IMG/VR virus record: IMGVR_UViG_3300023210_000016
DNA from: a virus
Lineage: Duplodnaviria; Heunggongvirae; Uroviricota; Caudoviricetes
Reading direction: 5' to 3' (one strand)
DNA length: 64,000 nt
Both the position numbers and the translations under genes were made by a program. Numbering within the stretch: the first letter of the stretch is position 1; each line of letters opens with the position of its first letter. Below the pieces are notes generated by a model, which did not search any database, was not told the origin of the DNA, and was given only the letters and a program-made list of their open reading frames with translations. Positions 1,197 through 63,155 of the stretch are shown piece after piece.

Positions 1197-2606
1197 TTAG
1201 AACGAAGCCATTAGTGATCGTCGCCAAATAGCGGTTGAACCATCGTACACGCCTGTACAAATATAAATGTACGCGGAATCATATGCGAACATGCCCGGAA
1301 GATCACCAGAAACGCCAACACCTGCGGGCGTTTGAGGGGTTACCACGCGAAAATTATCACCGGCAACTTCGAAGTTCGAGCTTACACTTACTACTCCGGT
1401 TCCATTTGCATCTAATATCAAATTCTCATTGGTGATTGTCGCCCGAACTTGGTTATCAATAAGTTCGACACGTTGATTACTGATATTTCCTTCTACTTCC
1501 AGAACGTATGTATTGGATGGGCCGGTGCCGGAATTGCCTATGATAACATTTCCTAAACCATTAAGTCGAAATCCTTCAACAACATTTAATCCAGCATCTC
1601 GGTACGTTAAACGCAACAACATGGAATTGCCAGTTTCTCTCCACAGAGACATGCCAGAGCCAAGACCATTTTGATCGGCAGAGTAAAACGCACCAACGGT
1701 TTCATCGTTCGCAGCATCAGTGTGGGTGGTTTGTACCCACCCATTGTCGGCACCACCCACGTTCAATACTGGTCCAACAATACCCAATTGAGAATAATCA
1801 CCATTGGTATTACCAACGCTCATATCACCCGCAGCATTGAAACGCATAACTTCAGCAGTATTGGATGTAAAACTCAGAATATTACCATTATGGTCATATT
1901 TGATTTCACCCAAAGTAGCGGAGTTGGCGTCAGTCCATGCAATTGATCCAAATCCGGAGGTCGTATTCAAAAATGTTAATTGTGCCTGTAATGACCCTTC
2001 GATAATAATACCCTTGGCCTGTTGTGCGGTGACGGCGGTTACGGCAGAGCTTGCATTGGTTACGTGTAGATTTGCTAATGGTGTAGCTTGCGTGATACCG
2101 ACCTGTCCGGTCGCATCCATTTTCATGAATTCAGTAGCCACTGTACCAAATGCCAATGTGGAAGAAGCCCCCCGAACGATCAATGATGCTTTACCCGCAT
2201 CGTCAACCGCCACAGATAATCCATCGGTATCGGTTGTGCTGAAGGTATCATTGCCAATAATCAATCCCCAAGGGGTTTGGTCATCTGCAGTAATTTTAAC
2301 CAACATACTAGCGGTGCTGGCGTTATCTTCTACTTCTAATCTTGCCACGGGAGTTGAGGTGCTTATTCCGAGATTGCCACTGGTAATGATCACATCGCCT
2401 GTTCCATTTGGATCAAGAATGATCTGTCCATTGGTGTCATCACTTATTATACTGTTCCCGGTGAGGGATAAATTACTCAAAGAAGCACCACCTAATTCGG
2501 TGTATACTTCCGTGAAGTTATCATTGATTTTTATCATCGAAGTTCTTATAGGATCACCCGTCCCGTCATTGGCGCTACTGCCTACATCTACTACCTGCTG
2601 TGTCAT
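1197..2606 (-). CDS. Tail fibre protein, 469 aa, Gly/Thr/Ser-rich
   Basis: N-terminus 'DPIRTSMIKINDNFTEVY' resembles the conserved tail-fibre N-terminal motif; low-complexity G/T/S-rich beta-rich body. Confidence 0.6.
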   Translation of the reverse strand: MTQQVVDVGSSANDGTGDPIRTSMIKINDNFTEVYTELGGASLSNLSLTGNSIISDDTNGQIILDPNGTGDVIITSGNLGISTSTPVARLEVEDNASTASMLVKITADDQTPWGLIIGNDTFSTTDTDGLSVAVDDAGKASLIVRGASSTLAFGTVATEFMKMDATGQVGITQATPLANLHVTNASSAVTAVTAQQAKGIIIEGSLQAQLTFLNTTSGFGSIAWTDANSATLGEIKYDHNGNILSFTSNTAEVMRFNAAGDMSVGNTNGDYSQLGIVGPVLNVGGADNGWVQTTHTDAANDETVGAFYSADQNGLGSGMSLWRETGNSMLLRLTYRDAGLNVVEGFRLNGLGNVIIGNSGTGPSNTYVLEVEGNISNQRVELIDNQVRATITNENLILDANGTGVVSVSSNFEVAGDNFRVVTPQTPAGVGVSGDLPGMFAYDSAYIYICTGVYDGSTAIWRRSLMASF

Positions 2607-2690: not shown

Positions 2691-3365
2691 ATGTATATAC
2701 GAGATGTACAAATCGAAAATACCGTTAAAGTGACTCGTGGTGACTGCACGTTCCACAGAAAAAACAAAGCGTATCATGCCCTTTACGAATGTGATGTATG
2801 TGGCATTGAGTTTACTAGAAAAGGGAAGTTCAGAAACAATATGGGATCATCGCACAATTATGAAGAAAGATGTAAAATGAATTCATATTGCAGTAAATGT
2901 TATCATCCGGCAATCACTCATGAGAATTCAGTTAAATCTCGACTTTCAAAACGCATCCTTGGGGAACAAAAAACTGACAAAGATGGCTATGTTCATAGAT
3001 TTGTTGGTCCGGATTGGCCCTATCAAAAAACATGGAATAAGCAAAATAGAAACTGGATACGTGAGCATATATATGTAATGTCCAATCATCTGGCGCGAAT
3101 GTTGTTATGCGGCGAACAGATACATCACATAGACGGTGATAAGAAAAACAACGATATCGATAATTTGGTATTATTATCGGCCAGCGAACATAAAATCGCA
3201 CACGATTCATATGAATTGGTTGGTCGCAATCTGTGTAAAATGGGTCATATTAGATTTGATCGAGGGGCAAACACCTATGTAATAAGCGAAGACCTGATGC
3301 GACAATTATCAGGAACAATAGACGCATCAAGTAATATGACCACAGACATGTCTATCACTATTTAA
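2691..3365 (+). CDS. HNH homing endonuclease, 224 aa
   Basis: Motif 'HHIDGDKKNNDIDNLVLLSASEHKIAH' (HNH); N-terminal CxxC zinc-finger-like pairs. Confidence 0.8.
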   Translation: MYIRDVQIENTVKVTRGDCTFHRKNKAYHALYECDVCGIEFTRKGKFRNNMGSSHNYEERCKMNSYCSKCYHPAITHENSVKSRLSKRILGEQKTDKDGYVHRFVGPDWPYQKTWNKQNRNWIREHIYVMSNHLARMLLCGEQIHHIDGDKKNNDIDNLVLLSASEHKIAHDSYELVGRNLCKMGHIRFDRGANTYVISEDLMRQLSGTIDASSNMTTDMSITI

Positions 3366-3409
3366 TACATAGGCGAACTTATGCTAAATACCATAACAGG
3401 AGTGAACAT

Positions 3410-4483
3410 ATGTCCTTTTTAAAGAGCGTTGCAGTTATCCTGATTAGTGTGTTTTTTGTTACCTCGACAGATGCCCACCATATCAATTTAGCTGATCTAG
3501 TGCAGACGGTGGAGAAGAGCATCGTAATTGTACAAGCTGTTCCGAACGAACAACCAAAACCAATAAAAAACAGCAACCCTTTTAGTCAATACGGACAACC
3601 CCCTGCCAAAAAACCCGATCCTGCACAAAAAGATCAACCAACTAAGTCCGGAACAGGGTTTGTGGTTGAAGGTGGAATCATTGTAACAAACGCTCATGTG
3701 GTTGAAGATTCCAAGTTTGCATACGTGTTATTCAAGAACCAAATGAAACGCCACAAAGTGATAATCAAACATCTCGATAGAAAAGCTGATATCGCCGTTC
3801 TCGTACCCGAAAATAATCAATTATTAGTCAGCATCGCCCCATTATCATTTAGTACTGACCTCTTACGATCAGGTCAGTCGGTGTTTGCTATCGGTCATCC
3901 ACTAGGATTCAAATACACGGTATCTACCGGCATTATCAGTAGCCCAAGTGTTCATTTGCCACAAGATACCAATCCGTTCCGCAGATTCGTACAAACCGAC
4001 ACAAGCATCAATCAAGGAAATTCTGGTGGCCCTTTGATGAACCATAGAGGCGAAGTTGTTGGCGTGAACACAATCATTATTTCACCCGGCAGAGTAGGAT
4101 CAATTGGATTGGGTTTCAGTCTAAGAGGTGATTATGTTCAGCGTGTGTTGAACCATTTTCGTAACTTTGGTGAGATCAAACGTCCGCGCATTGGCATTAA
4201 GTTAGGCTATAACCAAGAAAAAGAACGCCTATATGTTATGGAAATACAACCAAACTCACCTGCATCAAGTAGTGGGATATTGGTCGGAGACCTGATATTG
4301 AAGATCAATGCTGACGAGATAACCCTCATGGAACATATCTTCAATGCATTAGAACAACTGATGCCAAATGATGATATGAGAGTGCAAGTTAGCCGTGATG
4401 GTGTTATCACGACATATTCAGTGATCTTGGGTGATCTACGAGAATTTGAAAAGAAAGAAGCTCTAAAACTTAAAGTACGTTGA
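3410..4483 (+). CDS. HtrA/DegP-like trypsin-family serine protease with C-terminal PDZ domain, 357 aa; N-terminal signal peptide
   Basis: Catalytic motifs 'TNAHVV' (His), 'DIAVL' (Asp) and 'GNSGGPL' (Ser); hydrophobic N-terminus; RBS AGGAG 7 nt upstream. Confidence 0.85.
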   Translation: MSFLKSVAVILISVFFVTSTDAHHINLADLVQTVEKSIVIVQAVPNEQPKPIKNSNPFSQYGQPPAKKPDPAQKDQPTKSGTGFVVEGGIIVTNAHVVEDSKFAYVLFKNQMKRHKVIIKHLDRKADIAVLVPENNQLLVSIAPLSFSTDLLRSGQSVFAIGHPLGFKYTVSTGIISSPSVHLPQDTNPFRRFVQTDTSINQGNSGGPLMNHRGEVVGVNTIIISPGRVGSIGLGFSLRGDYVQRVLNHFRNFGEIKRPRIGIKLGYNQEKERLYVMEIQPNSPASSSGILVGDLILKINADEITLMEHIFNALEQLMPNDDMRVQVSRDGVITTYSVILGDLREFEKKEALKLKVR

Positions 4484-5063
4484 AGCTTTCTGCGAATTCA
4501 TAGAGATTGGTTTCGCGATTGAACGTTATCAATCCAGCCTTGACCATTTCGAATATAAGCTTTTCTGATTTCGCATGACAGTTGTTGTGTTCCTGTACTG
4601 TCATTGTTACTAAATTTTCTAGTTTGTTGTTTTTCTTGTCACCATCTATGTGATGAACAACTTCGCCTTTAGCCATGCTTCTGCCTAAATGTGATTCCAT
4701 GACATACGTATGCTGTCTAGCCCAATATCTGCCACCACCGTTACGAGTAATAAAGTTGTCGTCCAAACCTACGAATACAACATTATATTGGTCCCATGTT
4801 TCCCTCACTTCGCCAATTTCATATCTTTCTAGAATTTTCTTCGCACGATGCGCGGCCAACATCTTAGCTGCCGCCGATGCTCCGCAATCATTGCATACGT
4901 GATTATAATCGTCAGATAATCTGACCGGATCAACCGTGCCTTTTGCTCTGCAAAAAAATGCACTGCAACTATCACATGTGAAGTTGTGCCATGTTTTCTC
5001 TCGGAAATAGCTTCCGGATTTACGAGTAAATTCTGTCTTATTGAGGGTGTCGTTAATATACAT
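4470..5063 (-). CDS. HNH homing endonuclease, 197 aa; paralogue of 2691..3365
   Basis: Motif 'HHIDGDKKNNKLENLV...QEHNNCH'; N-terminal Cys pairs 'CDSCSAFFC', 'CNDC'. Confidence 0.8.
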   Translation of the reverse strand: MYINDTLNKTEFTRKSGSYFREKTWHNFTCDSCSAFFCRAKGTVDPVRLSDDYNHVCNDCGASAAAKMLAAHRAKKILERYEIGEVRETWDQYNVVFVGLDDNFITRNGGGRYWARQHTYVMESHLGRSMAKGEVVHHIDGDKKNNKLENLVTMTVQEHNNCHAKSEKLIFEMVKAGLITFNRETNLYEFAESFNVL

Positions 5064-9263: not shown

Positions 9264-9293
9264 AGATATAATAAGCTAGAACTACTCTAAAGG

Positions 9294-9372
9294 TACTAGG
9301 GGCCGGAATCGAACCGACTCGCCTTGCGGATGCCGTTATGAGCGGCAGGACTCCCCATTTGTCTTCCCTAGC
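9294..9372 (-). tRNA. tRNA, anticodon CAU (Met or Ile2-like), 79 nt, atypical 12-nt variable region and 3-bp D-stem; no encoded CCA
   Basis: Manual fold: acceptor GCTAGGG/CCCTAGT, anticodon stem TGCCG/CGGCA with loop CTCATAA, T-arm GTCGG-TTCGATT-CCGGC. Confidence 0.55.
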
Positions 9373-10774: not shown

Positions 10775-11899
10775 TTAATCCAATAGAATCTTCAATAATT
10801 CCTGATCTTCGCGCTGTATCTTTGATTTCGCTGGGCGATATGATACCTGTGTGGTGATTTGATCTTGCTCTTCATACAGTTTCAGGTCTAATACAAGTGC
10901 ATCATCTTTAACTCTTCGGTAATGTCCTTGGTCAAAGTATTCTACCTTTGCATGACCATCAATTCGTGCTGCCGATTTGTCACTAGGCGTGAACATATAG
11001 GTTCGTGGCTCAAACTGTAATGATTCACGCTCGGCCTCAATGGCTTGCATTTCCAACTCGAATGCGGTTTCACGTGATGGGGTGAACACAACTTCTGCTG
11101 CACGTGTACTGATTTCAGTTTCTGCTGGTACAAGATACGTATCCAATGGTTTTGTGTAAACTCGCGGAATAATGCCCTTGAACATTGTTTCCGCTGTACC
11201 ATCAAGTTGTAGCGTACGGCGTCTGGACCAACCTTTGTAAATGTAATGGTGTGCTGGCTCGAAGTATTCTGGACGTTTTCTTCTGGCTCGTGTGAACTGA
11301 ATGAAAGCACCTGCACCCCGACCCTGTTCTCCACTGAGTTCTGAAGCAAGTCCCTCGCCGCCTGTAACAAGTCCACCAGTGCCCGTGAATACATTGTGAA
11401 TGTTCTCATCAGCGTTTCCGCCCATAACAATACCACCAACACCAGTCCATTTGTAGACAACATATGCGCCAGCAGTGCCGCCCATCGTAATACCACCAAC
11501 ACCAGTGTAAGGAATGCCCGGTATCCACCCCGTTTGTGGTGAACCGAGAACCTGAATGTTTCCATCTGCATAGTAACGATAAATCGTGTTGGATGCATTT
11601 GTGAATGTCCAATTCGCTGAACCACGAACTTGAATGTTTCCATATGCTGGCCAGTGGTAATGGTACAGTCCATTAAGATATGAAATCCAAGGGGCACAGC
11701 CACCAGTGAAGATGTCACCGCCAACTCCTACTGCGATATATCCGCGAGTTACATCTGCGGCACCGCCGGTATTAATATCGGCAGTTAGATCAGTTACATG
11801 TGATAGTATACCTTGTGTGGCAACACTAAGGGTATCAATTGGTCCCTGTAAACCTTGGGAACCTGTTTGACTTGGATCGTTTTCAGTCGGACCAGCCAT
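10775..11899 (-). CDS. Gly-rich repeat tail fibre/baseplate protein, 374 aa
   Basis: Tandem 'TGVGGI(T/V)MGG' repeats; part of a contiguous minus-strand structural block. Confidence 0.55.
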   Translation of the reverse strand: MAGPTENDPSQTGSQGLQGPIDTLSVATQGILSHVTDLTADINTGGAADVTRGYIAVGVGGDIFTGGCAPWISYLNGLYHYHWPAYGNIQVRGSANWTFTNASNTIYRYYADGNIQVLGSPQTGWIPGIPYTGVGGITMGGTAGAYVVYKWTGVGGIVMGGNADENIHNVFTGTGGLVTGGEGLASELSGEQGRGAGAFIQFTRARRKRPEYFEPAHHYIYKGWSRRRTLQLDGTAETMFKGIIPRVYTKPLDTYLVPAETEISTRAAEVVFTPSRETAFELEMQAIEAERESLQFEPRTYMFTPSDKSAARIDGHAKVEYFDQGHYRRVKDDALVLDLKLYEEQDQITTQVSYRPAKSKIQREDQELLKILLD

Positions 11900-11903
11900 G
11901 CTG

Positions 11904-12530
11904 TTATCCGCTGTCGGTGCGCGTTACCGTTACCGTTGTATCGTCGCCAACAGTGACTTCACCAATAGTCTGTGTAATTGTTCCAGCCGTTCTGGAAGTA
12001 GGATCGACAACCAATGGATTGTCGCTATCCAAGCCGTGAAGTTTGTGGAGATCATCAAGTTCTTGAACAGAATTGATATCGAGAAGAGCACCGGTTTCAA
12101 CAATGTCAACCAAGTTCGACACGTTAAAGGTAATTTGAATGTTCCAATTCTCGATGGTATTTACGAACACGTCATCTCCCTCAACAGTATAAACGTTACC
12201 GTTGATGGCCAAGTTATGATCGCCTTCCCATGTTCTCATGCGCCATCCATTTTCCAAGAAGTACGTGATACCAAGGGTACGTGCTCCGGGGAGTGGGTTA
12301 CCACCAACGGCGGTCATCGCAAATAGGTATTGTGAATTCTGATAATGTGGGTCCATCTGCCACTCTTTCCAGTTCGAATACACATCTTCTTTGAAGTCAA
12401 GACTGGTAACGCCGGGGTTCACTAATATGAGTTTGTTCGGTCCATCAAACGTTACTGCTTGATTGCCAAATACATCATTGACTGCATATGTGTCCCAAAA
12501 TGTCCAATTACCGAAGCCGAGTGCTAGCAT
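11904..12530 (-). CDS. Structural (tail fibre/baseplate-associated) protein, 208 aa
   Basis: Contiguous with neighbouring fibre genes; no motif. Confidence 0.45.
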   Translation of the reverse strand: MLALGFGNWTFWDTYAVNDVFGNQAVTFDGPNKLILVNPGVTSLDFKEDVYSNWKEWQMDPHYQNSQYLFAMTAVGGNPLPGARTLGITYFLENGWRMRTWEGDHNLAINGNVYTVEGDDVFVNTIENWNIQITFNVSNLVDIVETGALLDINSVQELDDLHKLHGLDSDNPLVVDPTSRTAGTITQTIGEVTVGDDTTVTVTRTDSG

Positions 12531-12539
12531 TTAAGCTCC

Positions 12540-14171
12540 TTACAACTGAATTTCTGACCAGTCTACAGAATACAAGAACAGCCCTGTGCCTGTCTCAATA
12601 ACTTGAATACTTATCGACAAGGTTTGTTGTGTAGTGTTATCGCCTTCTAAAATGAACTGCGCAATGTTAAATAATTCGTTGCTGACGTTGTCGGTTAATA
12701 CGTTATAATCAGAGACAGCACTAGCCGAACCAATTCTCGACCAGATTATCTCACCACCACTTACTGCGGTCGCCGTAGTATCCACTTCCACCGCTGAGTT
12801 TGTGGTATCGTGTGGGGCAAAAACTGCGCCAGTCAATACGGATGGGTCTCTGCGAATTCTAATAACATATTGGAAAGCTGCATTGTTGCCGATGCTAAGT
12901 CCAACAAGATTGCTGATAACAGAGTTTCTAATGCCCTGATATGTCGTAGCCGCTCTCAGACTCATAATTGGCTTTTCGCCATCTGTATCCGCGATGCTTT
13001 TTCTTGCAGCGACCACTGCGGTGTGACGTGTTGTGTTTCTAGAAATATTACCCAGAGCTTTTACGGTAGCACAAGCAAAACGCATTTGGCTATTGCCCGA
13101 TGCAATGCCAGTGTTAGTTACTTCCAATCTGATTGGCAATGTGCCTGTGCGCATGTAAACTTGTGTCAGGTTGTTAGCATTTTCAAACGTGTGGCCAACT
13201 CTCTTCTCGCCCCATTCAGTAATCATGCCCATTCGTACCTTACCAGCACCTAACCATTGATAATCAAACCACATGAGATTCATGTTTAATGGGTTCCATG
13301 TAAATGGTCGCGTTGAAGAACCGTCTAATTTATTATCTGAGAAATCTGCTTGCGCAACTCTTGTATCTACTGCCGAAGAACCGTCTGCTGCACTACTACG
13401 AATTACTGCGTACAGTGTTGTTCCATCTAGTTCAAAGAATATTCCATTGTCATCATCGAAATAACCCCAACGACGACGAACGTTTGCTTTGCCGACATCA
13501 CCCATGACAATAGTCATTTCGATCAAGTTACCTGTTCCGGGTTGATACGGATGATACAAATGTGATTGTCTTACCGCACTAGCACCAGAGCCGGTGCCGC
13601 CGGTATCCAATAAAACAGAAGATTCGTTTTGAAGATATGTAATAGAACCTGTTCCTGCAGTGACATCGTACCATGCTTCTGGGTGTTCGGTGTATGTGTG
13701 GCTGTGATCGGAAATTGTGTTTTGTTCTGCAGAAAGCAAATCACCAAACGGACTGAACAATGGCGTACCGTCTTTGAATGTTATCTTCTGCGCACCATCA
13801 GCATCTAGTCGCTGTCTGAATTCTGGATTGTCTGGGTCAGTTAATACCATCAATTGGTATTCAGCATCGATCTGACTCGTGGACAGTGGAACGTTTGCTA
13901 CGCCCTTAGTGACAGCAGATACCTGCAGGTTTTCGTCGTTTGTGAAGGTTCCCGTGACTGTTTTCAGATACAATTCACCATCCGTTCCGGGTGTAAACCC
14001 AGTAACATTGATGGCAGTAACCGTACCTGTTGCAGAAGAGGAAACGCCCGTAACGACATCGCCAATTGCGAAACCGCCGTTTGTTTCGTTATCAAACGGT
14101 ACTAACGATCTGGCAACGGACCCGATTTTCTTACCAGTACTATCTGGTGGGACTCTCACGAATGATGGCAT
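12540..14171 (-). CDS. Large structural protein, 543 aa (tail/baseplate)
   Basis: Long ORF in the structural block; G/T/S-rich. Confidence 0.5.
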   Translation of the reverse strand: MPSFVRVPPDSTGKKIGSVARSLVPFDNETNGGFAIGDVVTGVSSSATGTVTAINVTGFTPGTDGELYLKTVTGTFTNDENLQVSAVTKGVANVPLSTSQIDAEYQLMVLTDPDNPEFRQRLDADGAQKITFKDGTPLFSPFGDLLSAEQNTISDHSHTYTEHPEAWYDVTAGTGSITYLQNESSVLLDTGGTGSGASAVRQSHLYHPYQPGTGNLIEMTIVMGDVGKANVRRRWGYFDDDNGIFFELDGTTLYAVIRSSAADGSSAVDTRVAQADFSDNKLDGSSTRPFTWNPLNMNLMWFDYQWLGAGKVRMGMITEWGEKRVGHTFENANNLTQVYMRTGTLPIRLEVTNTGIASGNSQMRFACATVKALGNISRNTTRHTAVVAARKSIADTDGEKPIMSLRAATTYQGIRNSVISNLVGLSIGNNAAFQYVIRIRRDPSVLTGAVFAPHDTTNSAVEVDTTATAVSGGEIIWSRIGSASAVSDYNVLTDNVSNELFNIAQFILEGDNTTQQTLSISIQVIETGTGLFLYSVDWSEIQL

Positions 14172-32711: not shown

Positions 32712-32973
32712 TTATGTATCCTTTCAGGATTGTTTTGGATCGTTCAGTTTAGTTACGCTCTTGATTAAACTTCATGCAGTATAGCAAAGGTGTATACCCG
32801 TGTCCACTGTTTATTTCGAGTTTTTTGATTTTCTTAGTTTTTGGAGAATGTCGGCATCAAGGTCATGACCAATCTCTTGGGCTAGCACATTCATGATCTC
32901 TTTTTCTACGTCAAGTCCTATGTAAGATGTACACTCACGGTCCATCCAACGTTTCTGACGTGCTTTGTCTTTT

Positions 32974-33366
32974 TTAGTTTTCATCCGCGCAAGCACACTT
33001 CACTTCATAATCATGAATAGCTGCTTTGATCGCATCTTCCGCTAACACCGAACAGTGAATTTTCACAGGTGGCAATGCCAACTCTTCTGCAATCTGTGTG
33101 TTTTTAATATCACCAGCTTCTGCAAGAGTTTTACCTTTTACCCATTCTGTGACCAAACTAGATGAAGCAATAGCTGACCCGCAACCAAATGTTTTGAACT
33201 TCGCATCTTGAATGATACCGTCCTGAACTTCGATTTGGAGTTTCATCACATCACCACAAGCCGGACTCCCCACTAATCCGGTTCCTACCGTAATTGAGTC
33301 TTTGTCCATAGCGCCAATGTTGCGCAGGTTCTCGTAATGATCTAATAGTTTGTCTGAGTATGCCAT
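32974..33366 (-). CDS. iscU: Fe-S cluster assembly scaffold IscU, 130 aa
   Basis: Near-identity to IscU signature segments: 'GSPACGDVMKLQI', 'FKTFGCGSAIASSSLVTEWVKGK', 'LPPVKIHCSVLAEDAIKAAI'. Confidence 0.95.
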   Translation of the reverse strand: MAYSDKLLDHYENLRNIGAMDKDSITVGTGLVGSPACGDVMKLQIEVQDGIIQDAKFKTFGCGSAIASSSLVTEWVKGKTLAEAGDIKNTQIAEELALPPVKIHCSVLAEDAIKAAIHDYEVKCACADEN

Positions 33367-33537
33367 GTTAATCCACCAATATGTCTTTTGCTTGTATTGC
33401 TGATCGTTTCAGCCATTGCTCAAGCTCTTCGATATCCTTCTTGCATTCGTCGCTAATAGCCCATCGAGCACTTTCCTCTGGAGTGAGCACTCGTTCTTTG
33501 GGGCTAATATTAGGAACCGGAGTTCCAAAAGTTGTCT

Positions 33538-33732
33538 TCATCCGTAATAATAGTGGAACTGTTCAATCTTTATCAAGTGTAGAAGAACTTTGTCCATTCC
33601 TTCCTGTGTTACGCATTTCTTGGATGGTGTTGTGCCAAGTGAATCACTTACCTTAACCATCCAGTCTTCCGCTCTATCTTTGTTACCAAATACCTCTTCC
33701 GCCCGATCTAATATAGTTTCATAATTCGACAT
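33538..33732 (-). CDS. Hypothetical protein, 64 aa
   Basis: ORF. Confidence 0.35.
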   Translation of the reverse strand: MSNYETILDRAEEVFGNKDRAEDWMVKVSDSLGTTPSKKCVTQEGMDKVLLHLIKIEQFHYYYG

Positions 33733-33928
33733 CAGTGTTCTCCAAGAGTCTAGTAACTTTACTTATCTGTTTAGCTACTCGTTTCATGGTTTGGACCGAT
33801 ATTTTGTCATGATTCTCTTGGCGTTCGATATCGTGTATCGCACCCTGAAGGTTCAAATACGCATCATGTTCGTTGCCGACACCCAATGCGTCTTTAATGT
33901 TGGCTCTGAGGTCACATAGCTCACACAC
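33719..33928 (-). CDS. Hypothetical protein, 69 aa
   Basis: ORF. Confidence 0.35.
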   Translation of the reverse strand: MCELCDLRANIKDALGVGNEHDAYLNLQGAIHDIERQENHDKISVQTMKRVAKQISKVTRLLENTDVEL

Positions 33929-34769
33929 GAGTAGCAGCCCTCATTCCTCGGGTTTGGCCACATGCAGCCCCGATATTGGAACCATCTGTCATGTGATATT
34001 CAACAGATACGCCACGCTCACGTAGATGCATTACGAATGCACCAATATCAGCATCTGATGCAGATTCGAGCTTACTGCGGATGATCGGATTGAACTGACT
34101 GATTTTGATATGCTCATTCGGGAATGTATCGGCTATTTCCTCGGCATCAGCAATACTATCATTGACGCCCTTGAGCAATGCGAAATTCAATTCAACTGGT
34201 CGATCTTCGAACTCGGTGATCATGTGATATTCATGAATAGCTTGTGCTATATCATCAATAGGTTTGGCGAGTGGGATCAACCATTCGCGTACATCGGGGT
34301 CCATCGAGTGGATCGATACCTGCAGCTTGAATGGTACTGAGAATTTCTCACGTGCCAAATCCACAATACGATCAGTTGCCACACCAGATGTTGAGACAGA
34401 AATCCGACAGTTCTCATGTTGCTCTAGATGGCGCATGGTGCCTAAAACATTTTTGTAATTCAGCAATGGTTCGCCTTCGCCCATAAAGCTGAACAATACG
34501 ACTTTTCCGTCTTCGGCATCGGTCGAATGTCTAGACATCATTGAATAGATTTGGTTCAGCATTTCGCCAGTGGTCAAGTTCACGGTTGTTTTCTCGGCAT
34601 CAGGAGATGCGCAAAAAGCACACCCAACGGCACAATTTAATTGTGTTGAGAAACATACAACTTGTTTTTCTGGTCGATTGAAATAGATTGCTTCGGCGTG
34701 GTTGCCGTTGAAAACCTCGATCAGGTCTTTTTGTACTTGGGCTTCGCCCATCGGTATTTGATCCATCAT
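33921..34769 (-). CDS. RlmN/Cfr-family radical SAM methyltransferase (N-terminally short), 282 aa
   Basis: 'LNCAVGCAFCAS' (Cx3Cx2C in the RlmN context), 'FMGEGEPLLN', 'VSTSGV' match RlmN blocks. Confidence 0.75.
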   Translation of the reverse strand: MMDQIPMGEAQVQKDLIEVFNGNHAEAIYFNRPEKQVVCFSTQLNCAVGCAFCASPDAEKTTVNLTTGEMLNQIYSMMSRHSTDAEDGKVVLFSFMGEGEPLLNYKNVLGTMRHLEQHENCRISVSTSGVATDRIVDLAREKFSVPFKLQVSIHSMDPDVREWLIPLAKPIDDIAQAIHEYHMITEFEDRPVELNFALLKGVNDSIADAEEIADTFPNEHIKISQFNPIIRSKLESASDADIGAFVMHLRERGVSVEYHMTDGSNIGAACGQTRGMRAATRV

Positions 34770-34775
34770 ATGTTC

Positions 34776-35879
34776 CTAATTCTTTTTCCATATCCAAGTT
34801 GGTTCAGCAAACGATCCAACTTTGTCTTTCAGCGCACCTGAATTCGGTCGTTTTCTCATTTCGTAACCAATACAACCAACGTATGTCGCCCCTGTTTTTT
34901 GTTGTATTTTGTCATTCATTCTATCACATATCTGATTGATAGTGTGATTCGAGTACACATCACTGATATTGAGAATCAAATGGCCGGAAGTTTCTAATCG
35001 ATCCCACATGTTATCAATGGTGGCAAACATGAATTTATTCATCCAGTCATCAAACTTTCTGAACTCTTTAAACGATTGATCCTCTTCTTGGGTATATCGT
35101 TCAATGTTGTAATACGGCGGCGATGTGAAAATGGTATCATACGTATTTCCAGTGTCGGGAAACTCTTGGGCTTTACCCACATTCATGTCGATAGTCTTGT
35201 TTCCGCCGTACATCTTAATTTGATCTTTGTATCCTTGTACTAAGGTTTGGTTTGGATCGATTCCGGTATATGATGTCGCATTAGATGCACAAAATCCCGC
35301 AAGTCGATCTCCCCATCCAGAACTGAAATCCAAAACATTAACTGATTCAAACTTATTATACACCGCCTTTGCAGCACTAGGTCTAAACTGACTCGCGATA
35401 TACTTTCTCAACGCAATACAAGACCTAAGTGTTTTTGTGTCAACTTTTGTAACCTTCAGCGACCAGAGAGCATTAAGCATCGTCATTCTAAATTTCTTGA
35501 TATACCAAGATCGGTATGGGCTAGGAGCATTGATGCTGTCACATTTCCATCTGTTCTCTTGGTGAAAATAATCTGATGCTTTGTTGCCAACACTGGACGA
35601 TTTAATGATGGTGTCTGTGCTGTCGTATTTGTAATCATACCTACTGAAAAATGGAGTATCTATGAACAGGCTTTGCTCGTCCAAATCTTTCAGACTTTGA
35701 AAAGCATCCATAGCTTCTTCTTTGGTAATGGTTCGCATGGGCATAGGCAATTGATCAATTGCGTCTGATATCATTTCCTTAATGTATTCTTTGTCGTGAT
35801 TTTGGTTAAGCTCCACCCACTGTTCGGGGGTTATGCTGATTTCGCTGTTTTGTATAATATTCATTCTTAAGTGTATCAC
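34776..35879 (-). CDS. SAM-dependent DNA methyltransferase (N4C/N6A type), 367 aa
   Basis: Motif I 'DFSSGWGDR' and motif IV 'FTSPPYYN'. Confidence 0.6.
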   Translation of the reverse strand: MIHLRMNIIQNSEISITPEQWVELNQNHDKEYIKEMISDAIDQLPMPMRTITKEEAMDAFQSLKDLDEQSLFIDTPFFSRYDYKYDSTDTIIKSSSVGNKASDYFHQENRWKCDSINAPSPYRSWYIKKFRMTMLNALWSLKVTKVDTKTLRSCIALRKYIASQFRPSAAKAVYNKFESVNVLDFSSGWGDRLAGFCASNATSYTGIDPNQTLVQGYKDQIKMYGGNKTIDMNVGKAQEFPDTGNTYDTIFTSPPYYNIERYTQEEDQSFKEFRKFDDWMNKFMFATIDNMWDRLETSGHLILNISDVYSNHTINQICDRMNDKIQQKTGATYVGCIGYEMRKRPNSGALKDKVGSFAEPTWIWKKN

Positions 35880-36230: not shown

Positions 36231-36259
36231 ATAGTACATTGTTATTTATACCATGTCAA
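36231..36259 (-). promoter_or_regulatory. sigma70-like promoter TTGACA-N17-TACTAT (minus strand)
   Basis: tgtcaa at 36254..36259 and atagta at 36231..36236. Confidence 0.5.
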
Positions 36260-38243: not shown

Positions 38244-38269
38244 GATAATTGATCTTTAGTTAATATTAG

Positions 38270-38361
38270 TACCCCCGCCGAGACTCGAACTCGGAACGCT
38301 CTCTAATCTGGAGACTGTGCTGATTATAAATCAGGGGTTTTACCAATTAAACTACGGGGGC
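38270..38361 (-). tRNA. Atypical tRNA, 92 nt: anticodon loop TTTATAA (UAU, Ile-AUA-like), long 24-nt variable arm with its own stem-loop; no CCA
   Basis: Acceptor GCCCCCG/CGGGGGT (G1-U72), D-arm GTTT-AATTGGTA-AAAC, anticodon stem CTGA/TCAG, T-arm CCGAG-TTCGAGT-CTCGG. Confidence 0.5.
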
Positions 38362-44994: not shown

Positions 44995-46482
44995 TCATGT
45001 CTTGAGGCATACTTTAACTCCGTATTCTACTTCGAATTCTTGAGCATCATGCTCATCGTTAACCATCGGCATGCCGCGAATGTTCAAGGATGTATTCAAC
45101 AACATCGGACATCCAGTCGCTTGATACCATTGTTCCAACAGTTTACGTAACCCCGAATTGTCATCTTTGCCAACAGTTTGAACTCTTGAGGTACCATCTT
45201 TGTGAATAATAGCAGGGAAATCCATTGGTCGTTTGCATGGCATTGTGTATTGCATCCATGTCGATTTATGAATACCAGACGGAACATAGAAATAATCCGT
45301 CAGATGCTCTTCCAAAATCACTGGCGCAAATGGTCGGAATTGTTGTCTACGTTTGATCTCGTTTACCTTGTCCTTGATCTCTGGACCTCGGGGATCAGCC
45401 AGCAATGAACGATTGCCCAAAGCACGTGGACCATATTCGGCTCGACCATTGGCGACACCAACAATCTTGTTCCTTAGTAGTTCATCCAACAACGCTTTAA
45501 CGGGATAATCTCCCTCGATATCAGTTCCAAGGAAGGTGCTAGGTACCGTTATTTTTCCACCATGTGCCAGTGCGGCGGCACCCAATGCAGACCCAGCATC
45601 ACCCGGATTAGGCATGATGTACATACGATCAAATATCTTGGCGTTGGCCAATCGGGTGTTCAATACACAATTCAATGCGACACCGCCCATGAATACAACG
45701 TTGGTGCATCCGGATAGCTTTTTAGCGAGTGCAAACACTTCCATCATTTCTGTTTCTAAGACATATTGCACACTTGCTGCTAAATCATTTATGTCAGCTT
45801 CAGGTTTCCAATCACCAATCCCACGATGTAGATTGGCACCGAGGAAGTCATCTCTAATATCTTGTGCATATTTTGGTCCACCATATGCAGCCATGCCCAT
45901 CAAGATGTATTCTTCATCCATTGGCTTCAAACCACATCGTTCAGTGAATGCGGAATACAACAGCCCGAGCGATTTAGGGTATTTGGCTGAATACAGTTTC
46001 TTGTACAATGCTCTGCCGTTATGATATCTTGCATGCCATATAGTTGTGCAATCAAATTCACCAATAGCATCAACCACAACGACACATGCTTCATTGAAGC
46101 CAGATGTTTGGAACCCTGCGGCAGCATGCGATTTGTGATGCGTGTAATAATAGATAGGTGGATTGCTGACAGTGTTATTGATTGCTTTGAATAAGCGAAT
46201 ATGTGAACTAGGCCATACCGTTGACATATGGTTATGGAATATCTCACCTGAGAGAAGCTGTCTTGCCTTCTTAAGCAACGGTCTCTCATAGTAAGCAATC
46301 TTGTCAAAGCCACTACCACTAACCCTTAAAGCTTCTTCAAGCATCCCATCGTTGAGATATTTGTCGAATTTCTTGCCACTGTACCGCTCTGCATGTGCTG
46401 CAAACGTAACCGTATCGTCTTGTATCAATGCACAAGCAGCATCGTGATGACCGAATGATAGTCCTAGAATGTTAGTAGACAT
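44995..46482 (-). CDS. NodU/CmcH-family carbamoyltransferase, 495 aa
   Basis: N-terminal 'ILGLSFGHHDAACALIQDD...AHAERYSGKK' and overall length fit the carbamoyltransferase family. Confidence 0.8.
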   Translation of the reverse strand: MSTNILGLSFGHHDAACALIQDDTVTFAAHAERYSGKKFDKYLNDGMLEEALRVSGSGFDKIAYYERPLLKKARQLLSGEIFHNHMSTVWPSSHIRLFKAINNTVSNPPIYYYTHHKSHAAAGFQTSGFNEACVVVVDAIGEFDCTTIWHARYHNGRALYKKLYSAKYPKSLGLLYSAFTERCGLKPMDEEYILMGMAAYGGPKYAQDIRDDFLGANLHRGIGDWKPEADINDLAASVQYVLETEMMEVFALAKKLSGCTNVVFMGGVALNCVLNTRLANAKIFDRMYIMPNPGDAGSALGAAALAHGGKITVPSTFLGTDIEGDYPVKALLDELLRNKIVGVANGRAEYGPRALGNRSLLADPRGPEIKDKVNEIKRRQQFRPFAPVILEEHLTDYFYVPSGIHKSTWMQYTMPCKRPMDFPAIIHKDGTSRVQTVGKDDNSGLRKLLEQWYQATGCPMLLNTSLNIRGMPMVNDEHDAQEFEVEYGVKVCLKT

Positions 46483-52296: not shown

Positions 52297-52917
52297 CTAT
52301 TCGATCCCTTCCAAGATTTTCAGAGCAGAGTGCAGACCATCCAGTTCACCAGCGAACTGGTCGTAGTTTTCGTTGGAAACACTCCAAGCACAATCATCCA
52401 TCCGGGCGATTTCGGCTTTGATGGCACCGATGGCGACTGCAAACTTTGAAACTTTCTTGACGATCTTTTTCTTGGCGACCTTCTTTTCGGTAACGACAAA
52501 AGGCTTGTCGTACTGACCGATGTTCACATTCAGGTACCACCCAACATCGAAGTAGTCCGACTGGATGTCGCTGTTGTTGTGATTTCCATCGTTGGCACCG
52601 TCGATGATGGCCGCTAACATCCGCTTGGCGGCACCAGTGAAATGATCTTGATACCAAAACTCGTTGACTTGAAGGTAGGTACGGGTGGCGAGATTGAAGG
52701 CATCGTATTCGGTGCCTTGATTGATGGCCTTGACGCCTTCACGTGCGTTGGCGTTGGCGATCAGGTCGATGTCGCTTGATTTGATGTTCACAACCAGTAC
52801 TGAACCGTGACGTACGCCCAAGGTATACTTGACGCGGCCAGTCATGCCAGCTTCTTCCAGATTTTTGTCGATCTCGATCTTGATCCGCTTCTTTTCGACT
52901 TGGGTCATGTAGGCCAT
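52297..52917 (-). CDS. Early protein, ~206 aa (ATG at 52915..52917, MAYMTQ...)
   Basis: Preceded by RBS AGGAGAG, the conserved 5'UTR and promoter copy C (TTGACG-N16-TATACT, 52956..52983). Confidence 0.5.
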   Translation of the reverse strand: MAYMTQVEKKRIKIEIDKNLEEAGMTGRVKYTLGVRHGSVLVVNIKSSDIDLIANANAREGVKAINQGTEYDAFNLATRTYLQVNEFWYQDHFTGAAKRMLAAIIDGANDGNHNNSDIQSDYFDVGWYLNVNIGQYDKPFVVTEKKVAKKKIVKKVSKFAVAIGAIKAEIARMDDCAWSVSNENYDQFAGELDGLHSALKILEGIE

Positions 52918-52984
52918 GTGGTCTCTCCTGTTTGTTTGTTTCTTTCTACTCTTTGAGTATACACCAAAAGTGAAATACGTCAAC

Positions 52985-53305
52985 CTATTTTAGCTGCTCA
53001 CTTAGGTATGCCGTATATTTTGCCAAGATTTTATATTTGAGTTTCAGTGTGGCCTTGCTATCAAACACTAGGCAAAAGCCCCACATTGTACGGCCAGTTT
53101 TCCTGATAGGCTGTTTGATGATAGTACTCGCATTGCCGTAGACATTGATATCGGCATTGACTGCCACGTACAGTTCAGTCGAATATTCACGGGAATTCTT
53201 TGAAATAGAACCTATTACTGTGCGCTCTTTGCCATTGGCCCAAACGACCTTCCCGATCTTGTTGCGACTGTCGGTCTTGTCCCATTTAAACATGATCTTG
53301 GCCAT
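52985..53305 (-). CDS. Early protein, 106 aa
   Basis: ATG with RBS AGGAGAG, conserved 5'UTR and promoter copy B. Confidence 0.5.
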   Translation of the reverse strand: MAKIMFKWDKTDSRNKIGKVVWANGKERTVIGSISKNSREYSTELYVAVNADINVYGNASTIIKQPIRKTGRTMWGFCLVFDSKATLKLKYKILAKYTAYLSEQLK

Positions 53306-56189: not shown

Positions 56190-56789
56190 TTAGGTTATAC
56201 GGAATTTCTCATCATGGTTTTTCTTACCCAGCATTAACTTGATAGTGACTTCGCTATCCGGCAGAAACCCTTTTTTGATGTACTTTTTGATACGCCGCTC
56301 GACATTATCCCATCCATGATCGGCGATGGACTTATTCACGTCGATGAAATGTAATGTACCTGTTTCCAAATCGGCAATTGCTTCCGGAGTATGAATAACC
56401 TGCTTCCCATCGGTGGCGAATTGACATACCGTGATATCGAAACTATTGATACAATCAATTGCGGTTTCCTCTGAACGGAAGCCAACACAATTCAATACGT
56501 ATCCAATATAATTCAACCAGCACAGTGCGCCGTGGCCATAATCATTGCCTTGTCGTTGCTGATGGTTGTCGGTTGCGCCGCAATCATACAGGGTTTGCTT
56601 GAATTCTTGGTATTGCGCTTTGTTGGCGAAGTAGATGTCCACATCATTCGCATTCAAGAAGTTACCATCCTGATGGAAGTTCAATGCGGCACCGCCAGCG
56701 ATCCATGGCCCGTTGTTCAGGTCCATCAATGGGAGCAAGTTGGTGATGTTGTATGGCTTATGTGATAGATTCATCATCGTCTTCATCAT
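56190..56789 (-). CDS. Pol-beta-superfamily nucleotidyltransferase; head-domain motifs resemble tRNA CCA-adding/poly(A) polymerase, 199 aa
   Basis: 'IAGGAALNFHQDGNFLNANDVDIYF' (GG...DxD) and 'INSFDITVCQFA' (cf. RDFTINA). Confidence 0.4.
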   Translation of the reverse strand: MMKTMMNLSHKPYNITNLLPLMDLNNGPWIAGGAALNFHQDGNFLNANDVDIYFANKAQYQEFKQTLYDCGATDNHQQRQGNDYGHGALCWLNYIGYVLNCVGFRSEETAIDCINSFDITVCQFATDGKQVIHTPEAIADLETGTLHFIDVNKSIADHGWDNVERRIKKYIKKGFLPDSEVTIKLMLGKKNHDEKFRIT

Positions 56790-57792: not shown

Positions 57793-58554
57793 TTATAGCT
57801 CAAAGGTCTGGCCTTTCACAACCCAACCACGGAACCCATCCTGAATACAATCAGCTTTGTCGCCGGGTTGATAATGATATAGCCACATTTTGGCTTTGGT
57901 TTCTTCGTCCAGTGTCACCAGTTCATTGTAGTGAGCATGTACGCCAGATGGGAACGGAGAGGTTTCACTGTCCTGAAAAATTATGTCAGACATGTTGTAG
58001 AAATCTCTGATCTGGTTCGGATTGAATTGGGTGTCGGTTGTAATGAAATACGAAACTTCATTCACGGTGAACATCAATCCATACGAAGGTACGATGTCAA
58101 ACCCATCCATATAATGAACAACTTGAACCAACGTAAATGACACGCCTTCCCACAGGAATGATCCGTTCTTCTCGATAGCTTCGACAACAAAGTAATCATC
58201 CAACGATGTGATTTTGGTTTGAATTGATCCTGCGCCACCAGACAAGGTATGAGTCCATAGATCGGGTGCAAGATTTTCATTCACAAACAACGTAGGGCGC
58301 TTTAGCGTAGGATTGAAATACGTACTGAACATCAAGTATTCCATTCCGCCAACATGATCGGCGTGTTGGTGACTGACGTACACAGCATCAATGGTATCCA
58401 GTTCGATCCCCTGATCTCGCAGTGAGAACCTGATATCAGTTCCACAATCAATCAACAGACGTTTGCCGTTGTCCGCTTCGATGATCATATTGGATTGATA
58501 GTTATTTGGCTCTAGCGTAAAGGCCGAACCTGCGCCTAAGAATATGAGTTTCAT
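57793..58554 (-). CDS. Metallo-beta-lactamase-fold hydrolase (RNase Z/BN-like), 253 aa
   Basis: 'LIFLGAGSAF...LLIDCGTDIRF...VYVSHQHADHVGG' (HxHxDH). Confidence 0.7.
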   Translation of the reverse strand: MKLIFLGAGSAFTLEPNNYQSNMIIEADNGKRLLIDCGTDIRFSLRDQGIELDTIDAVYVSHQHADHVGGMEYLMFSTYFNPTLKRPTLFVNENLAPDLWTHTLSGGAGSIQTKITSLDDYFVVEAIEKNGSFLWEGVSFTLVQVVHYMDGFDIVPSYGLMFTVNEVSYFITTDTQFNPNQIRDFYNMSDIIFQDSETSPFPSGVHAHYNELVTLDEETKAKMWLYHYQPGDKADCIQDGFRGWVVKGQTFEL

Positions 58555-59174: not shown

Positions 59175-59332
59175 TGGTGGGTCTTGACGGGATCGAACCG
59201 CCGACATTCTCGGTGTCATTTGAACCTCAAAGATTTCCCTTCTTGGTTCCCCAATGCAGAGTTCGATGAACTCCGGAGACTTTATGGAAGTCTCACATAA
59301 ACGAGATGCTCTACCATCTGAGCTAAAGACCC
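59175..59332 (-). tRNA. tRNA-like gene, 158 nt with encoded CCA: canonical acceptor/D/T arms but an ~82-nt insertion (putative intron) in the anticodon loop; the spliced loop would be TTTATGC (UAU)
   Basis: 5' exon GGGTCTT-TA-GCTC-AGATGGTA-GAGC-A-TCTCG; 3' exon CGAGA-ATGTC-GGCGG-TTCGATC-CCGTC-AAGACCC-A-CCA; 89 nt lie between the paired anticodon-stem halves. Confidence 0.55.
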
Positions 59333-60671: not shown

Positions 60672-60986
60672 TTACATTCCCGTAGGATAATAAGGTTGAA
60701 CGCCAGAGTCTTGATCTTCAATACTTTCCACAAGTTGAACTTCTGGAATGAAATGAGTCAACATGTTTTGGACGCCGTATTTGATTGTGGCGTTAGAACT
60801 AGCACACCCGGCACACGCGCCTGACATGAACATGGTAGCCACGCCATCTTTATATGATTCAAGGGTGACTGAGCCGCCGTGTTGGGCCACCATAGGTGCA
60901 ACGTGAATTTCTAATAGGTCATTAATCTCTTGTGTGATCTCTTCGTCGGTCTTATCGGTCATCTGTTTTTTCCGTTCGTTCTTCAA
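60672..60986 (-). CDS. Nfu/NifU-C-terminal-domain Fe-S cluster carrier, 104 aa
   Basis: 'MVAQHGGSVTLESYKDGVATMFMSGACAGCASS' matches the Nfu CxxC domain. Confidence 0.75.
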   Translation of the reverse strand: MKNERKKQMTDKTDEEITQEINDLLEIHVAPMVAQHGGSVTLESYKDGVATMFMSGACAGCASSNATIKYGVQNMLTHFIPEVQLVESIEDQDSGVQPYYPTGM

Positions 60987-62729: not shown

Positions 62730-63155
62730 CTATACATCTTCTTCCCTTTGCTTTACGCCTAAACGCGCATTCACCATTTGTTCAAACTCTTTGTCTAAAT
62801 CACTGTATTGGATTGTTTCACCACTTGCATGATCTTTGACAATGTTACGAGGCTCATGATAGGTTCGAATGGTTTCATCAGATTCGTAACGTTTACGCGA
62901 CTCTTTTTGATTATACAGGTTTACTACCCGATGTGCAAGTTTTGTGAACGCCTCTTTTTGATTACGGGATCGTTCACGGAAATTCTGACCGGTTTCCATC
63001 ATGCCAGATTCGATATGGGTGATCCTGCAACAGTTCTGATGTTTGTTGCGATGCTGCCCACCTGCGCCGGTACCACTGAACCAATCGATCTTGAAATCTT
63101 TCTTGGTGAACGATAGATGCGGTATTCGCTCTAAGTGCATGTTAGTTTTGACCAT
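62730..63155 (-). CDS. ArfB/class-I release-factor-like GGQ-domain peptidyl-tRNA hydrolase, 141 aa
   Basis: 'SGTGAGGQHRNKHQNCCRITHIESGMMETGQNFRERSRNQKEA' matches the RF GGQ domain (SG.GGQ.VNK....R..H.P.G..V.CQ..RSQ..N). Confidence 0.75.
   Translation of the reverse strand: MVKTNMHLERIPHLSFTKKDFKIDWFSGTGAGGQHRNKHQNCCRITHIESGMMETGQNFRERSRNQKEAFTKLAHRVVNLYNQKESRKRYESDETIRTYHEPRNIVKDHASGETIQYSDLDKEFEQMVNARLGVKQREEDV

Follow-up and report, generated by a model that had tools for sequence, protein, structure and literature searches.

Why does a phage carry a scaffold for building clusters of iron and sulfur (Fe-S clusters), and which proteins would receive them? The question is raised by a 64,000-nucleotide (nt) stretch of the IMG/VR virus record IMGVR_UViG_3300023210_000016, referred to below as the window. 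Here genes for an IscU-type scaffold, an A-type carrier and an Nfu-type carrier occur together with genes for two radical S-adenosylmethionine (radical-SAM) enzymes, one RlmN/Cfr-like and one that we call rSAM1. An initial annotation of the window had proposed that the phage brings its own scaffold and carriers to mature its own radical-SAM enzymes. Our best explanation, which we hold with moderate confidence, is broader: this marine T4-like phage carries a partial, host-dependent Fe-S cluster supply kit, which would act as a general booster for both host and phage clients. The two radical-SAM enzymes would be plausible clients of such a kit, without privileged status.

Scaffold, carriers and missing partners

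The scaffold was annotated as a near-canonical IscU, and this proved correct. The protein exceeds the curated equivalog cut-off of NCBIfam TIGR01999 (211.8 bits against 192.4), and matches Pfam NifU_N with an E-value of 1.7e-48. Its identity is 75% with E. coli IscU and ranges from 73-86% across the cellular and viral IscUs compared. Aligning its translation with E. coli IscU shows all of the cluster-site ligands intact (Cys37, Asp39, Cys62, His104 and Cys105). The LPPVK motif, to which HscA binds, is also kept at residues 98-102, and the phage IscU can therefore probably still use host HscA and HscB.

The gene labelled IscA/HesB is likewise confirmed as encoding an A-type carrier, with the complete ligand triad of Cys33 and Cys100-Gly-Cys102 (C-x(60-66)-C-G-C; aligned to HI1723). 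It matches PF01521 (E 4.7e-13), exceeds the TIGR00049 cut-off (84.5 bits against 58.8), is assigned to phrog_17776 and is 31% identical to E. coli IscA. It falls under the equivalog cut-off of every subtype (ErpA, 78.3 bits against 117; SufA, 81.4 against 136.2; IscA, 50.4 against 150.6). Its best solved relative is H. influenzae HI1723 (E 1e-17; PDB entry name 'Protein HI1723'), which we take to be of the ErpA type.

The second carrier consists of an Nfu C-terminal domain only, the NfuA model TIGR03341 being matched at profile positions 101-190 with 55.4 bits against 269.35. Its CXXC, formed by Cys50 and Cys53 in the 96-residue form, aligns with those of human NFU1 and E. coli NfuA, to which the protein is 37% and 32% identical, respectively; the match to the human NFU1 C-terminal domain has an E-value of 6e-17. 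The Nfu identity of this gene thus stands and its start does not, as databases call the ATG at 60962 and not the upstream TTG at 60986 from which it had been annotated. With the radical-SAM domain, each of the Pfam families expected for these genes was matched (NifU_N, PF01521, PF01106 and PF04055). At least 22 other IMG/VR contigs carry Nfu-type single-domain proteins. The window also encodes a NodU/CmcH-type carbamoyltransferase at 44995-46482 (-), and a homologue of it lies within 10 kb of the Nfu-type gene in 7 of 22 IMG/VR contigs.

The usual partners of IscU could not be found. Searching the window by tblastn with E. coli IscS, HscA, HscB, Fdx, IscR and IscX gave nothing credible, the best match of IscS having an E-value of 2.4, and Pfam tables revealed none of the same ISC partners in flanks of about 20 kb. 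An HscB-like co-chaperone considered at 52297-52983 was rejected, the tblastn match having an E-value of 0.007 (52807-53031) and Pfam finding no J-domain. Because the desulfurase and the helpers are absent from the window and its flanks, the kit should be host-dependent, plugging into the ISC machinery of the host.

This composition is not exceptional among viruses. We compared 81 viral IscU loci, namely the best 80 of at least 598 in IMG/VR and that of phage C48C1, with the 80 best cellular matches. An A-type carrier is adjacent to the viral IscU in 67 of the 81, and none has iscS, hscB, fdx or iscR within 10 kb. Among the cellular loci, iscS lies within 4 kb in 72 of 80, mostly as part of a full isc operon (Fisher p = 4e-37 for iscS proximity, cellular versus viral). 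The T4-like genome LR796861, of 161 kb, is a representative example: IscU is followed by an A-type carrier and then by a PD-(D/E)XK nuclease, next to gp32 and gp59. Judged by these gene contents, a partial kit is the viral norm and no peculiarity of the window phage. That viral kits omit the desulfurase would mean dependence on the ISC system of the host, and it is a possible clue to the type of host.

The window comes from an uncultivated marine T4-like phage with T4-type baseplate and virion proteins, whose nearest relatives are cyanomyophage proteins at about 33% identity. No near-identical phage was found in INPHARED by megablast of 10 kb. Its gene order is repeated on independent contigs of up to 103 kb that come from JGI, ENA and Logan, and the exact proteins recur on contigs from many samples (IscU on 7, rSAM1 on 14 and Nfu on 17); the window is a real, recurrent environmental phage and no chimera. 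Such genes are scarce in deposited genomes. Among 50,697 phage records, IscU occurs in 16, mostly mislabelled host fragments, an A-type carrier in 6 and Nfu in 0, so that three Fe-S genes in one 64-kb stretch are not a matter of chance. The five open reading frames (ORFs) for the scaffold, the carriers and the radical-SAM enzymes are present at the annotated coordinates, dispersed and all on the minus strand. Their shared strand is true and uninformative, since the minus strand holds 91 of the 110 ORFs in a greedy non-overlapping set of ORFs of at least 150 nt.

One feature of the phage IscU departs from the cellular pattern. Its C-terminus reads DYEVK-C124-A-C126-ADEN, an extra K-C-x-C tail, the last residues of which are encoded at 32977-32997 (-) of the window. 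A C-terminal C-x-C or CC tail occurs at 22 of the 81 viral IscU loci and in none of the 80 best cellular matches (Fisher p = 9e-8), which is a fair control in that both sets were retrieved with the same query and method. A tail is also present in 119 of the 120 nearest protein clusters, a figure with some circularity, since the query itself has the tail, which adds to the search score. A neighbour-joining tree of the tail-less core failed to resolve the Cys-tailed IscUs as a single clade, its best split reaching only 36/130. There are no core columns diagnostic of tailed IscUs, and the core is 83-87% identical across all groups; we therefore do not claim a clade. The two tail cysteines are reminiscent of the C-G-C ligand pair in A-type carriers. 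In the literature we found no report of a K-C-x-C tail on a viral IscU, and the 2017 study of viral Fe-S genes (PMC5332604) makes no mention of cysteines or of any C-terminal feature of IscU.

The two radical-SAM enzymes and their gene neighbourhoods

That the window encodes two radical-SAM proteins was also upheld, by PF04055 for rSAM1 and by TIGR00048 for the other, whose RlmN/Cfr-like identity is further supported by its predicted fold. The TIGR00048 match has an E-value of 6e-45; its score of 153.7 bits is below the cut-off of 290 and it covers only profile positions 82-347 of 355. The Cfr models gave 96-102 bits against cut-offs of 468-550. An AlphaFold2 model with a predicted local distance difference test score (pLDDT) of 93.6 has the RlmN structures 6fz6 and 5hr7 as its best PDB matches, at a template modelling score (TM) of 0.84. 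The top 11 fold matches are all RlmN or Cfr, and the next family follows at TM 0.56. The cluster motif is C46-x3-C50-x2-C53, and alignment to 6fz6 shows that both mechanistic cysteines are kept, Cys39 corresponding to C118 of the E. coli enzyme and Cys270 to C355. All 24 sequences compared, full-length RlmN-type proteins among them, share these five cysteines. Taken together, motif and model make methyl-synthase chemistry likely.

What the protein lacks is the N-terminal HhH2 RNA-binding domain (PF21016, about 70-90 residues), its alignment beginning at residue 91 of 6fz6. To full-length RlmN-type proteins, which have 335-440 residues and contain PF21016, it is 33-36% identical. It belongs to a short family of about 70 protein clusters (254-300 residues) that are without PF21016 and keep the cluster motif and the mechanistic cysteines; all nine genomic contexts examined are phage-like contigs. 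Searching IMG/VR by exact peptide words gave no close relatives of either the RlmN-like protein or Nfu, and relatives were found by alignment-based scans. The possibility that the missing domain is encoded by a separate upstream ORF was rejected. Five upstream ORFs on related phage contigs contain neither PF21016 nor any convincing domain, and in the window the gene upstream encodes an unrelated methyltransferase-like protein and not a PF21016 domain. One match to the RlmN-like protein, in Xanthomonas phage JGB6, is labelled 'prohibitin', which we take to be a mis-assigned product name.

The absence of this domain bears on the substrate. In the Cfr-rRNA structure HhH2 anchors Cfr to H91/H92, and RlmN too has a positively charged RNA-binding region (PMC13001441). 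The methylation of rRNA or tRNA suggested in the initial annotation is plausible but less certain than was assumed, because the phage enzyme is without the RNA-anchoring N-terminal domain. Genes found near members of the short family encode a class II aminoacyl-tRNA synthetase, ClpP, ClpB, peptide deformylase, DnaJ or QueC, and such neighbourhoods make it reasonable to expect a target among the RNAs of the translation apparatus. The aminoacyl-tRNA synthetase hints at a tRNA-centred role, and the substrate may differ from A2503, for example phage or host tRNA or another nucleic acid. On one related phage contig, the RlmN-like gene and a class II aminoacyl-tRNA synthetase gene (tRNA-synt_2b and HGTP_anticodon; contig positions 8470-9654) have one small ORF between them. 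Viral members of the Cfr/RlmN family were noted as early as 2009 (PMC2836569); we found no report in the literature of a phage-associated RlmN family without the N-terminal domain.

The other enzyme, rSAM1, has the cluster motif C22-x3-C26-x2-C29. Four further cysteines near its C-terminus (233, 253, 282 and 287) are invariant in 36 family members, a pattern that suggests a second, auxiliary cluster. The twitch model is matched at E<1e-5 by 14 of these 36, cut-offs not having been checked for each member. A named family was sought and rejected: no NCBIfam model reaches its cut-off, and PDB profile and fold searches gave generic matches only. The best NCBIfam match, viperin-like, scores 58.2 bits against 180 and covers only the N-terminal 105 residues, and the AlphaFold2 model (pLDDT 90.8) resembles twitch, SPASM and viperin-like folds at TM of about 0.5 (BlsE, CteB, SuiB, EpeE and SpeY). 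The protein is at most 40% identical to anything compared. Its family comprises 654 clusters at E<1e-10, and at least 64 IMG/VR contigs carry a member; members are frequent on large viral contigs, among which one is labelled a giant-virus metagenome-assembled genome. In the window phage, rSAM1 is flanked by a baseplate-wedge/tail-fibre-like gene and an Ig-like (He_PIG) gene, within a baseplate/tail-fibre-like module (window 1197-2606 (-) and flanking contig 10935-13028). A conserved linkage of rSAM1 to tail genes was rejected, as a baseplate-like neighbour is present in only 2 of 64 loci.

A distance of 555 nt separates the RlmN-like gene from IscU in an unbroken string that runs from 35879 to 32811. 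The string begins with the methyltransferase-like and RlmN-like genes, continues with three tiny ORFs and IscU, and closes with a further tiny ORF. Starts and stops overlap or abut throughout, with no intergenic terminator, and IscU is probably co-transcribed with the RlmN-like gene. A sigma-70-like promoter match is placed just after a tRNA-Gly gene, upstream of the string (Table 1). The T4-type late promoter TATAAATA was uninformative, with 3 matches against 3.1 expected. The methyltransferase-like gene lies immediately upstream of the RlmN-like gene, with 6 nt between the two, and its Pfam matches are weak and mostly sub-threshold (N6_N4_Mtase, Methyltransf_25 and UPF0020). A conserved pairing of the two was rejected, the methyltransferase having no homologue in any other locus compared. 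The three small ORFs in the gap have no PHROG match and no homologue in any viral locus compared; the 64-residue one has a weak Xre_MbcA_ParS_C match (E 1e-4, below cut-off). The last tiny ORF of the string, at 32811-32984 (-) and of 57 residues from its ATG, overlaps the end of IscU. It matches a 33-residue stretch of T4 Gp23 in Pfam (E 8e-6; 25.9 bits against 24.4) and looks like a capsid-gene fragment or mimic.

The A-type carrier is coupled to a different partner. Its start overlaps the stop of an IF-1 gene by 4 nt, and the two are translationally coupled. In viral-fraction metatranscriptomes from Lake Baikal, transcripts classified as HesB/IscA/SufA-family protein or as IF-1 rank with the most numerous of their functional categories (PMC9611531).

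The tailed IscU and the short RlmN-like enzyme would be two virus-restricted variants in one operon-like string, and each may differ in function from its cellular counterpart. On this less probable reading, the tailed IscU could hold or transfer clusters without HscA/HscB or ferredoxin, and the domain-less RlmN may use a substrate other than A2503. The tail and the domain-less family would both be relevant to the rewiring of Fe-S trafficking and RNA modification in infection.

Table 1. Coordinates of the Fe-S assembly genes, the radical-SAM genes and associated features in the window
Feature	Position	Strand	Basis
Radical-SAM enzyme rSAM1, 300 aa	293..1195	-	PF04055, 46.3 bits against 29.5
A-type Fe-S carrier, 109 aa	5137..5466	-	TIGR00049, PF01521, Cys triad
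Translation initiation factor IF-1 homologue, 73 aa	5463..5684	-	TIGR00008, 104.8 bits against 61.15
IscU-type Fe-S scaffold, 130 aa	32974..33366	-	TIGR01999, Pfam NifU_N, ligands
Three small ORFs (57, 64 and 69 aa) between the RlmN-like gene and IscU	33368..33928	-	Starts and stops overlap or abut
RlmN/Cfr-like radical-SAM methyl synthase core, 282 aa	33921..34769	-	TIGR00048, fold match
SAM-dependent methyltransferase-like protein, 367 aa, SPPY motif	34776..35879	-	phrog_12517, E 3e-13
Sigma-70-like promoter match, TTGACA-17 nt-TACTAT	36231..36259	-	Consensus match only
Single-domain Nfu-type Fe-S carrier, 96 aa from ATG	60672..60962	-	PF01106, 68 bits against a cut-off of 27

Possible recipients of the clusters

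How might such a kit work? The source of sulfur, the timing of expression and the recipients of the clusters are matters that we infer. The phage IscU would serve as the scaffold on which clusters are built, taking its sulfur from host IscS, and the A-type and single-domain Nfu carriers would pass [2Fe-2S] and [4Fe-4S] clusters on to apo-proteins. Extra scaffold and carriers, if expressed during infection, could raise or protect Fe-S delivery. The beneficiaries would be the host Fe-S enzymes that the phage needs as well as Fe-S clients of its own, among which two candidates are visible, the RlmN-like enzyme with one cluster and rSAM1 with probably two.

Several points weigh against this reading. 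The promoter upstream of the string is a consensus match, and promoter-like sites are not enriched in the region (11 found, 9.5 expected). A desulfurase might be encoded elsewhere, since about 84 kb (the window and its flanks of about 20 kb) is visible of a genome that is probably at least 150 kb. A host with only the SUF system would leave an ISC-type scaffold without its normal partner. In addition, the K-C-x-C tail implies that the viral IscU is no simple copy of the host scaffold, and it may work differently.

A narrower reading, the one originally advanced, would reserve the kit for the radical-SAM enzymes that the phage itself encodes, with specific delivery to the RlmN-like protein and rSAM1. 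Its underlying logic is sound, as radical-SAM enzymes need [4Fe-4S] clusters, and the genes that it calls for are present, three Fe-S genes in one phage being far above base rates. IscU shares a translationally coupled string with the RlmN-like gene, the four invariant extra cysteines of rSAM1 suggest an auxiliary cluster, and Nfu-type carriers are known to service radical-SAM enzymes with auxiliary clusters (PMC13066941). The specific link is what fails to find support, quite apart from the absent helpers. Within 6-10 kb on each side, which is the reach of these comparisons as opposed to genome-wide co-occurrence, no conserved linkage is seen in either direction. None of 36 viral loci with an RlmN-like gene contains IscU, an A-type carrier or Nfu within 10 kb, and none of 64 rSAM1 loci contains an Fe-S assembly gene within 6 kb. 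Conversely, either radical-SAM gene is near IscU in 0 of 81 viral loci, and IscU, a carrier or either radical-SAM gene is near Nfu in 0 of 22. A conserved neighbourhood of IscU and the RlmN-like gene was accordingly rejected. These radical-SAM families thus occur without nearby Fe-S assembly genes in every locus examined, just as neither of the two families is seen close to the viral IscU-carrier cassette, and we regard a dedicated kit as doubtful.

A second alternative leaves phage Fe-S enzymes out of account. The kit could be a buffer against stress or iron limitation, repairing or remaking host clusters damaged by oxidation, or economising scarce iron in surface water, and so keeping host respiration and nucleotide synthesis running until lysis. 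The A-type carrier is nearer to ErpA and SufA (78.3 and 81.4 bits) than to IscA (50.4), all below cut-off. Carriers of the ErpA and SufA types serve under aerobic or stress conditions. A proteostasis theme that would fit is formed by HSP20, ClpS and an HtrA-like protease, encoded in the window or close to it, and Fe-S auxiliary metabolic genes (AMGs) are enriched in photic-zone viromes according to reports as cited in PMC5332604. The sequence does not distinguish such a buffer from the general booster that we prefer, and neither an oxidative-stress regulator nor an iron-uptake gene was seen in the window or flanks; on balance we consider the buffer unlikely.

The tail invites a third alternative, in which the phage IscU is a takeover device that competes for host IscS and redirects host sulfur and Fe-S flux, the virus-restricted pair of C-terminal cysteines perhaps giving it altered chemistry. 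In its favour, the core is 75% identical to E. coli IscU and keeps the ligands, and the distribution of the tail (22/81 viral, 0/80 cellular) implies virus-specific selection on the viral protein. IscS also feeds tRNA thiolation and the synthesis of thiamine and the molybdenum cofactor, and it is described as a hub with competing partners (PMC11446229). This account is purely inferential, the two downstream carriers fit productive delivery better than blocking, and no inhibitor-like change is visible at the cluster site, which together make takeover decidedly improbable.

Finally, it is scarcely credible that the genes are host DNA, brought in by chimeric assembly or as a recent non-functional passenger, even with an IscU so similar to the cellular ones compared and with many 'phage' database matches for IscU being host fragments, because the arrangement recurs on 7-17 independent contigs from different projects, the genes are embedded among phage genes with phage-like composition, no iscS adjoins IscU as it does in 72 of 80 cellular loci, and the catalytic residues are all intact. 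The initial annotation had itself named recent host-derived passengers as a possibility, and composition argues otherwise: in guanine-cytosine (GC) content, GC content at third codon positions and synonymous codon use, all five genes lie within 1.2 standard deviations of the window mean. Four of the five proteins are distant from every cellular homologue compared, the exception being IscU, which is highly conserved everywhere. We therefore return to the general, host-dependent booster as the best explanation.

Two themes stand out in the wider gene content, translation/proteostasis and anti-defence. To the first belong IF-1, an ArfB-like RF-1-domain protein of 141 residues (62730-63155 (-)), several tRNAs, and ribosomal protein S21, HSP20 and ClpS, encoded just beyond the right end of the window (flanking contig 4389-4628, 4887-5354 and 7081-7386). 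Three of the tRNA calls are unusual. The stretch at 59178-59332 (-) fits the Rfam tRNA model end to end (51.8 bits) with about 82 extra nt in the anticodon loop, was not called by ARAGORN and may be an intron-containing tRNA. ARAGORN called a tRNA-Ile(TAT) of 93 nt with a long variable region at 38269-38361 (-), and a tRNA-Met(CAT) at 9292-9372 (-) that Rfam did not recover at gathering score. The HtrA-like trypsin/PDZ protease (3410-4483) lies on a plus-strand island (2691-5063) in a minus-strand region, bracketed by two HNH_3 endonuclease genes (2691-3365 (+) and 4470-5063 (-)); the island may be a mobile insertion. Candidate anti-defence genes encode an Apyc1-type anti-Pycsar protein of the metallo-beta-lactamase fold (57793-58554 (-), 94 bits against 50) and, as a candidate only, a protein with a precomputed Gad2 (anti-Gabija) match that our own Pfam scan did not reproduce (56190-56726 (-)).

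Comparison with known systems

Fe-S assembly genes in marine viruses have been described before. Nishimura et al. 2017 reported A-type carriers (14) and IscU (6) in marine viral genomes of four virus groups, several of them T4-like (PMC5332604). Where T4-like genomes encode IscU or A-type carriers, they contain 2-12 radical-SAM and other Fe-S genes as well, and the viral assembly proteins were proposed to serve both host and viral proteins (PMC5332604). Earlier virome reports are those of Sharon 2011 and Hurwitz 2015, as cited in PMC5332604; iscU and erpA have been found in HMO-2011-type phages (PMC9038755), and PHROGs already has families for all three Fe-S assembly proteins. The auxiliary strategy had been called little-explored in the initial annotation. 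This holds for experiments, none on viral Fe-S helper genes being reported in PMC5332604, PMC9038755 or the other literature found; it does not hold for the pattern or the hypothesis, both already in Nishimura et al. 2017. The window phage shares with those genomes a marine T4-like background, a gammaproteobacterial-type IscU, an A-type carrier, radical-SAM genes and the lack of a desulfurase, and the functional hypothesis is the same. It differs in adding a third component, Nfu, which PMC5332604 does not mention. It also differs from the viral norm of an adjacent IscU and carrier, the two being 27 kb apart, with the carrier coupled to IF-1 and IscU to the RlmN-like gene.

The likeness to the E. 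coli ISC system (iscRSUA-hscBA-fdx-iscX) lies in the IscU ligands, the LPPVK motif and the 75% identity, and in the three cysteines of the A-type carrier. The differences are that IscS, HscB, HscA, Fdx, IscX and IscR were not found in the window, that the phage genes are dispersed over 55 kb, and that IscU ends in the extra K-C-x-C. The radical-SAM enzyme LipA has its sacrificial cluster rebuilt by NfuA (PMC13066941), and ISCU hands [4Fe-4S] clusters to NFU1 (PMC7261492).

Another useful comparison is with the modular proteins NifU and NfuA. NifU joins an IscU-like N-domain, a ferredoxin-like centre and an Nfu C-domain, and E. coli NfuA joins a degenerate A-type domain to Nfu. The A-type domain of NfuA has lost its cysteine ligands, whereas the phage A-type protein keeps them. 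The corresponding phage modules are an IscU-like scaffold, an A-type domain and an Nfu domain with its CXXC (PMC13066941), each encoded by a small gene of its own. Similarly, the RlmN-like enzyme shares with RlmN and Cfr, which act on A2503 of 23S rRNA and in the case of RlmN also on tRNA A37, the radical-SAM core, the beta-extension, the CX3CX2C motif, the mechanistic cysteines and the fold, and it differs in lacking HhH2 and in its 33-36% identity to full-length RlmN-type proteins.

The kind of system is therefore already known, the idea is not new, and the window phage is one more example. It shows that one phage can carry the scaffold and both types of carrier, and the trio with its two candidate clients would be a convenient, compact system for a first biochemical test. 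What is new here, set against the viral and cellular systems described, is the presence of all three components in one genome, with IscU apart from the carrier and beside an RlmN-like gene.

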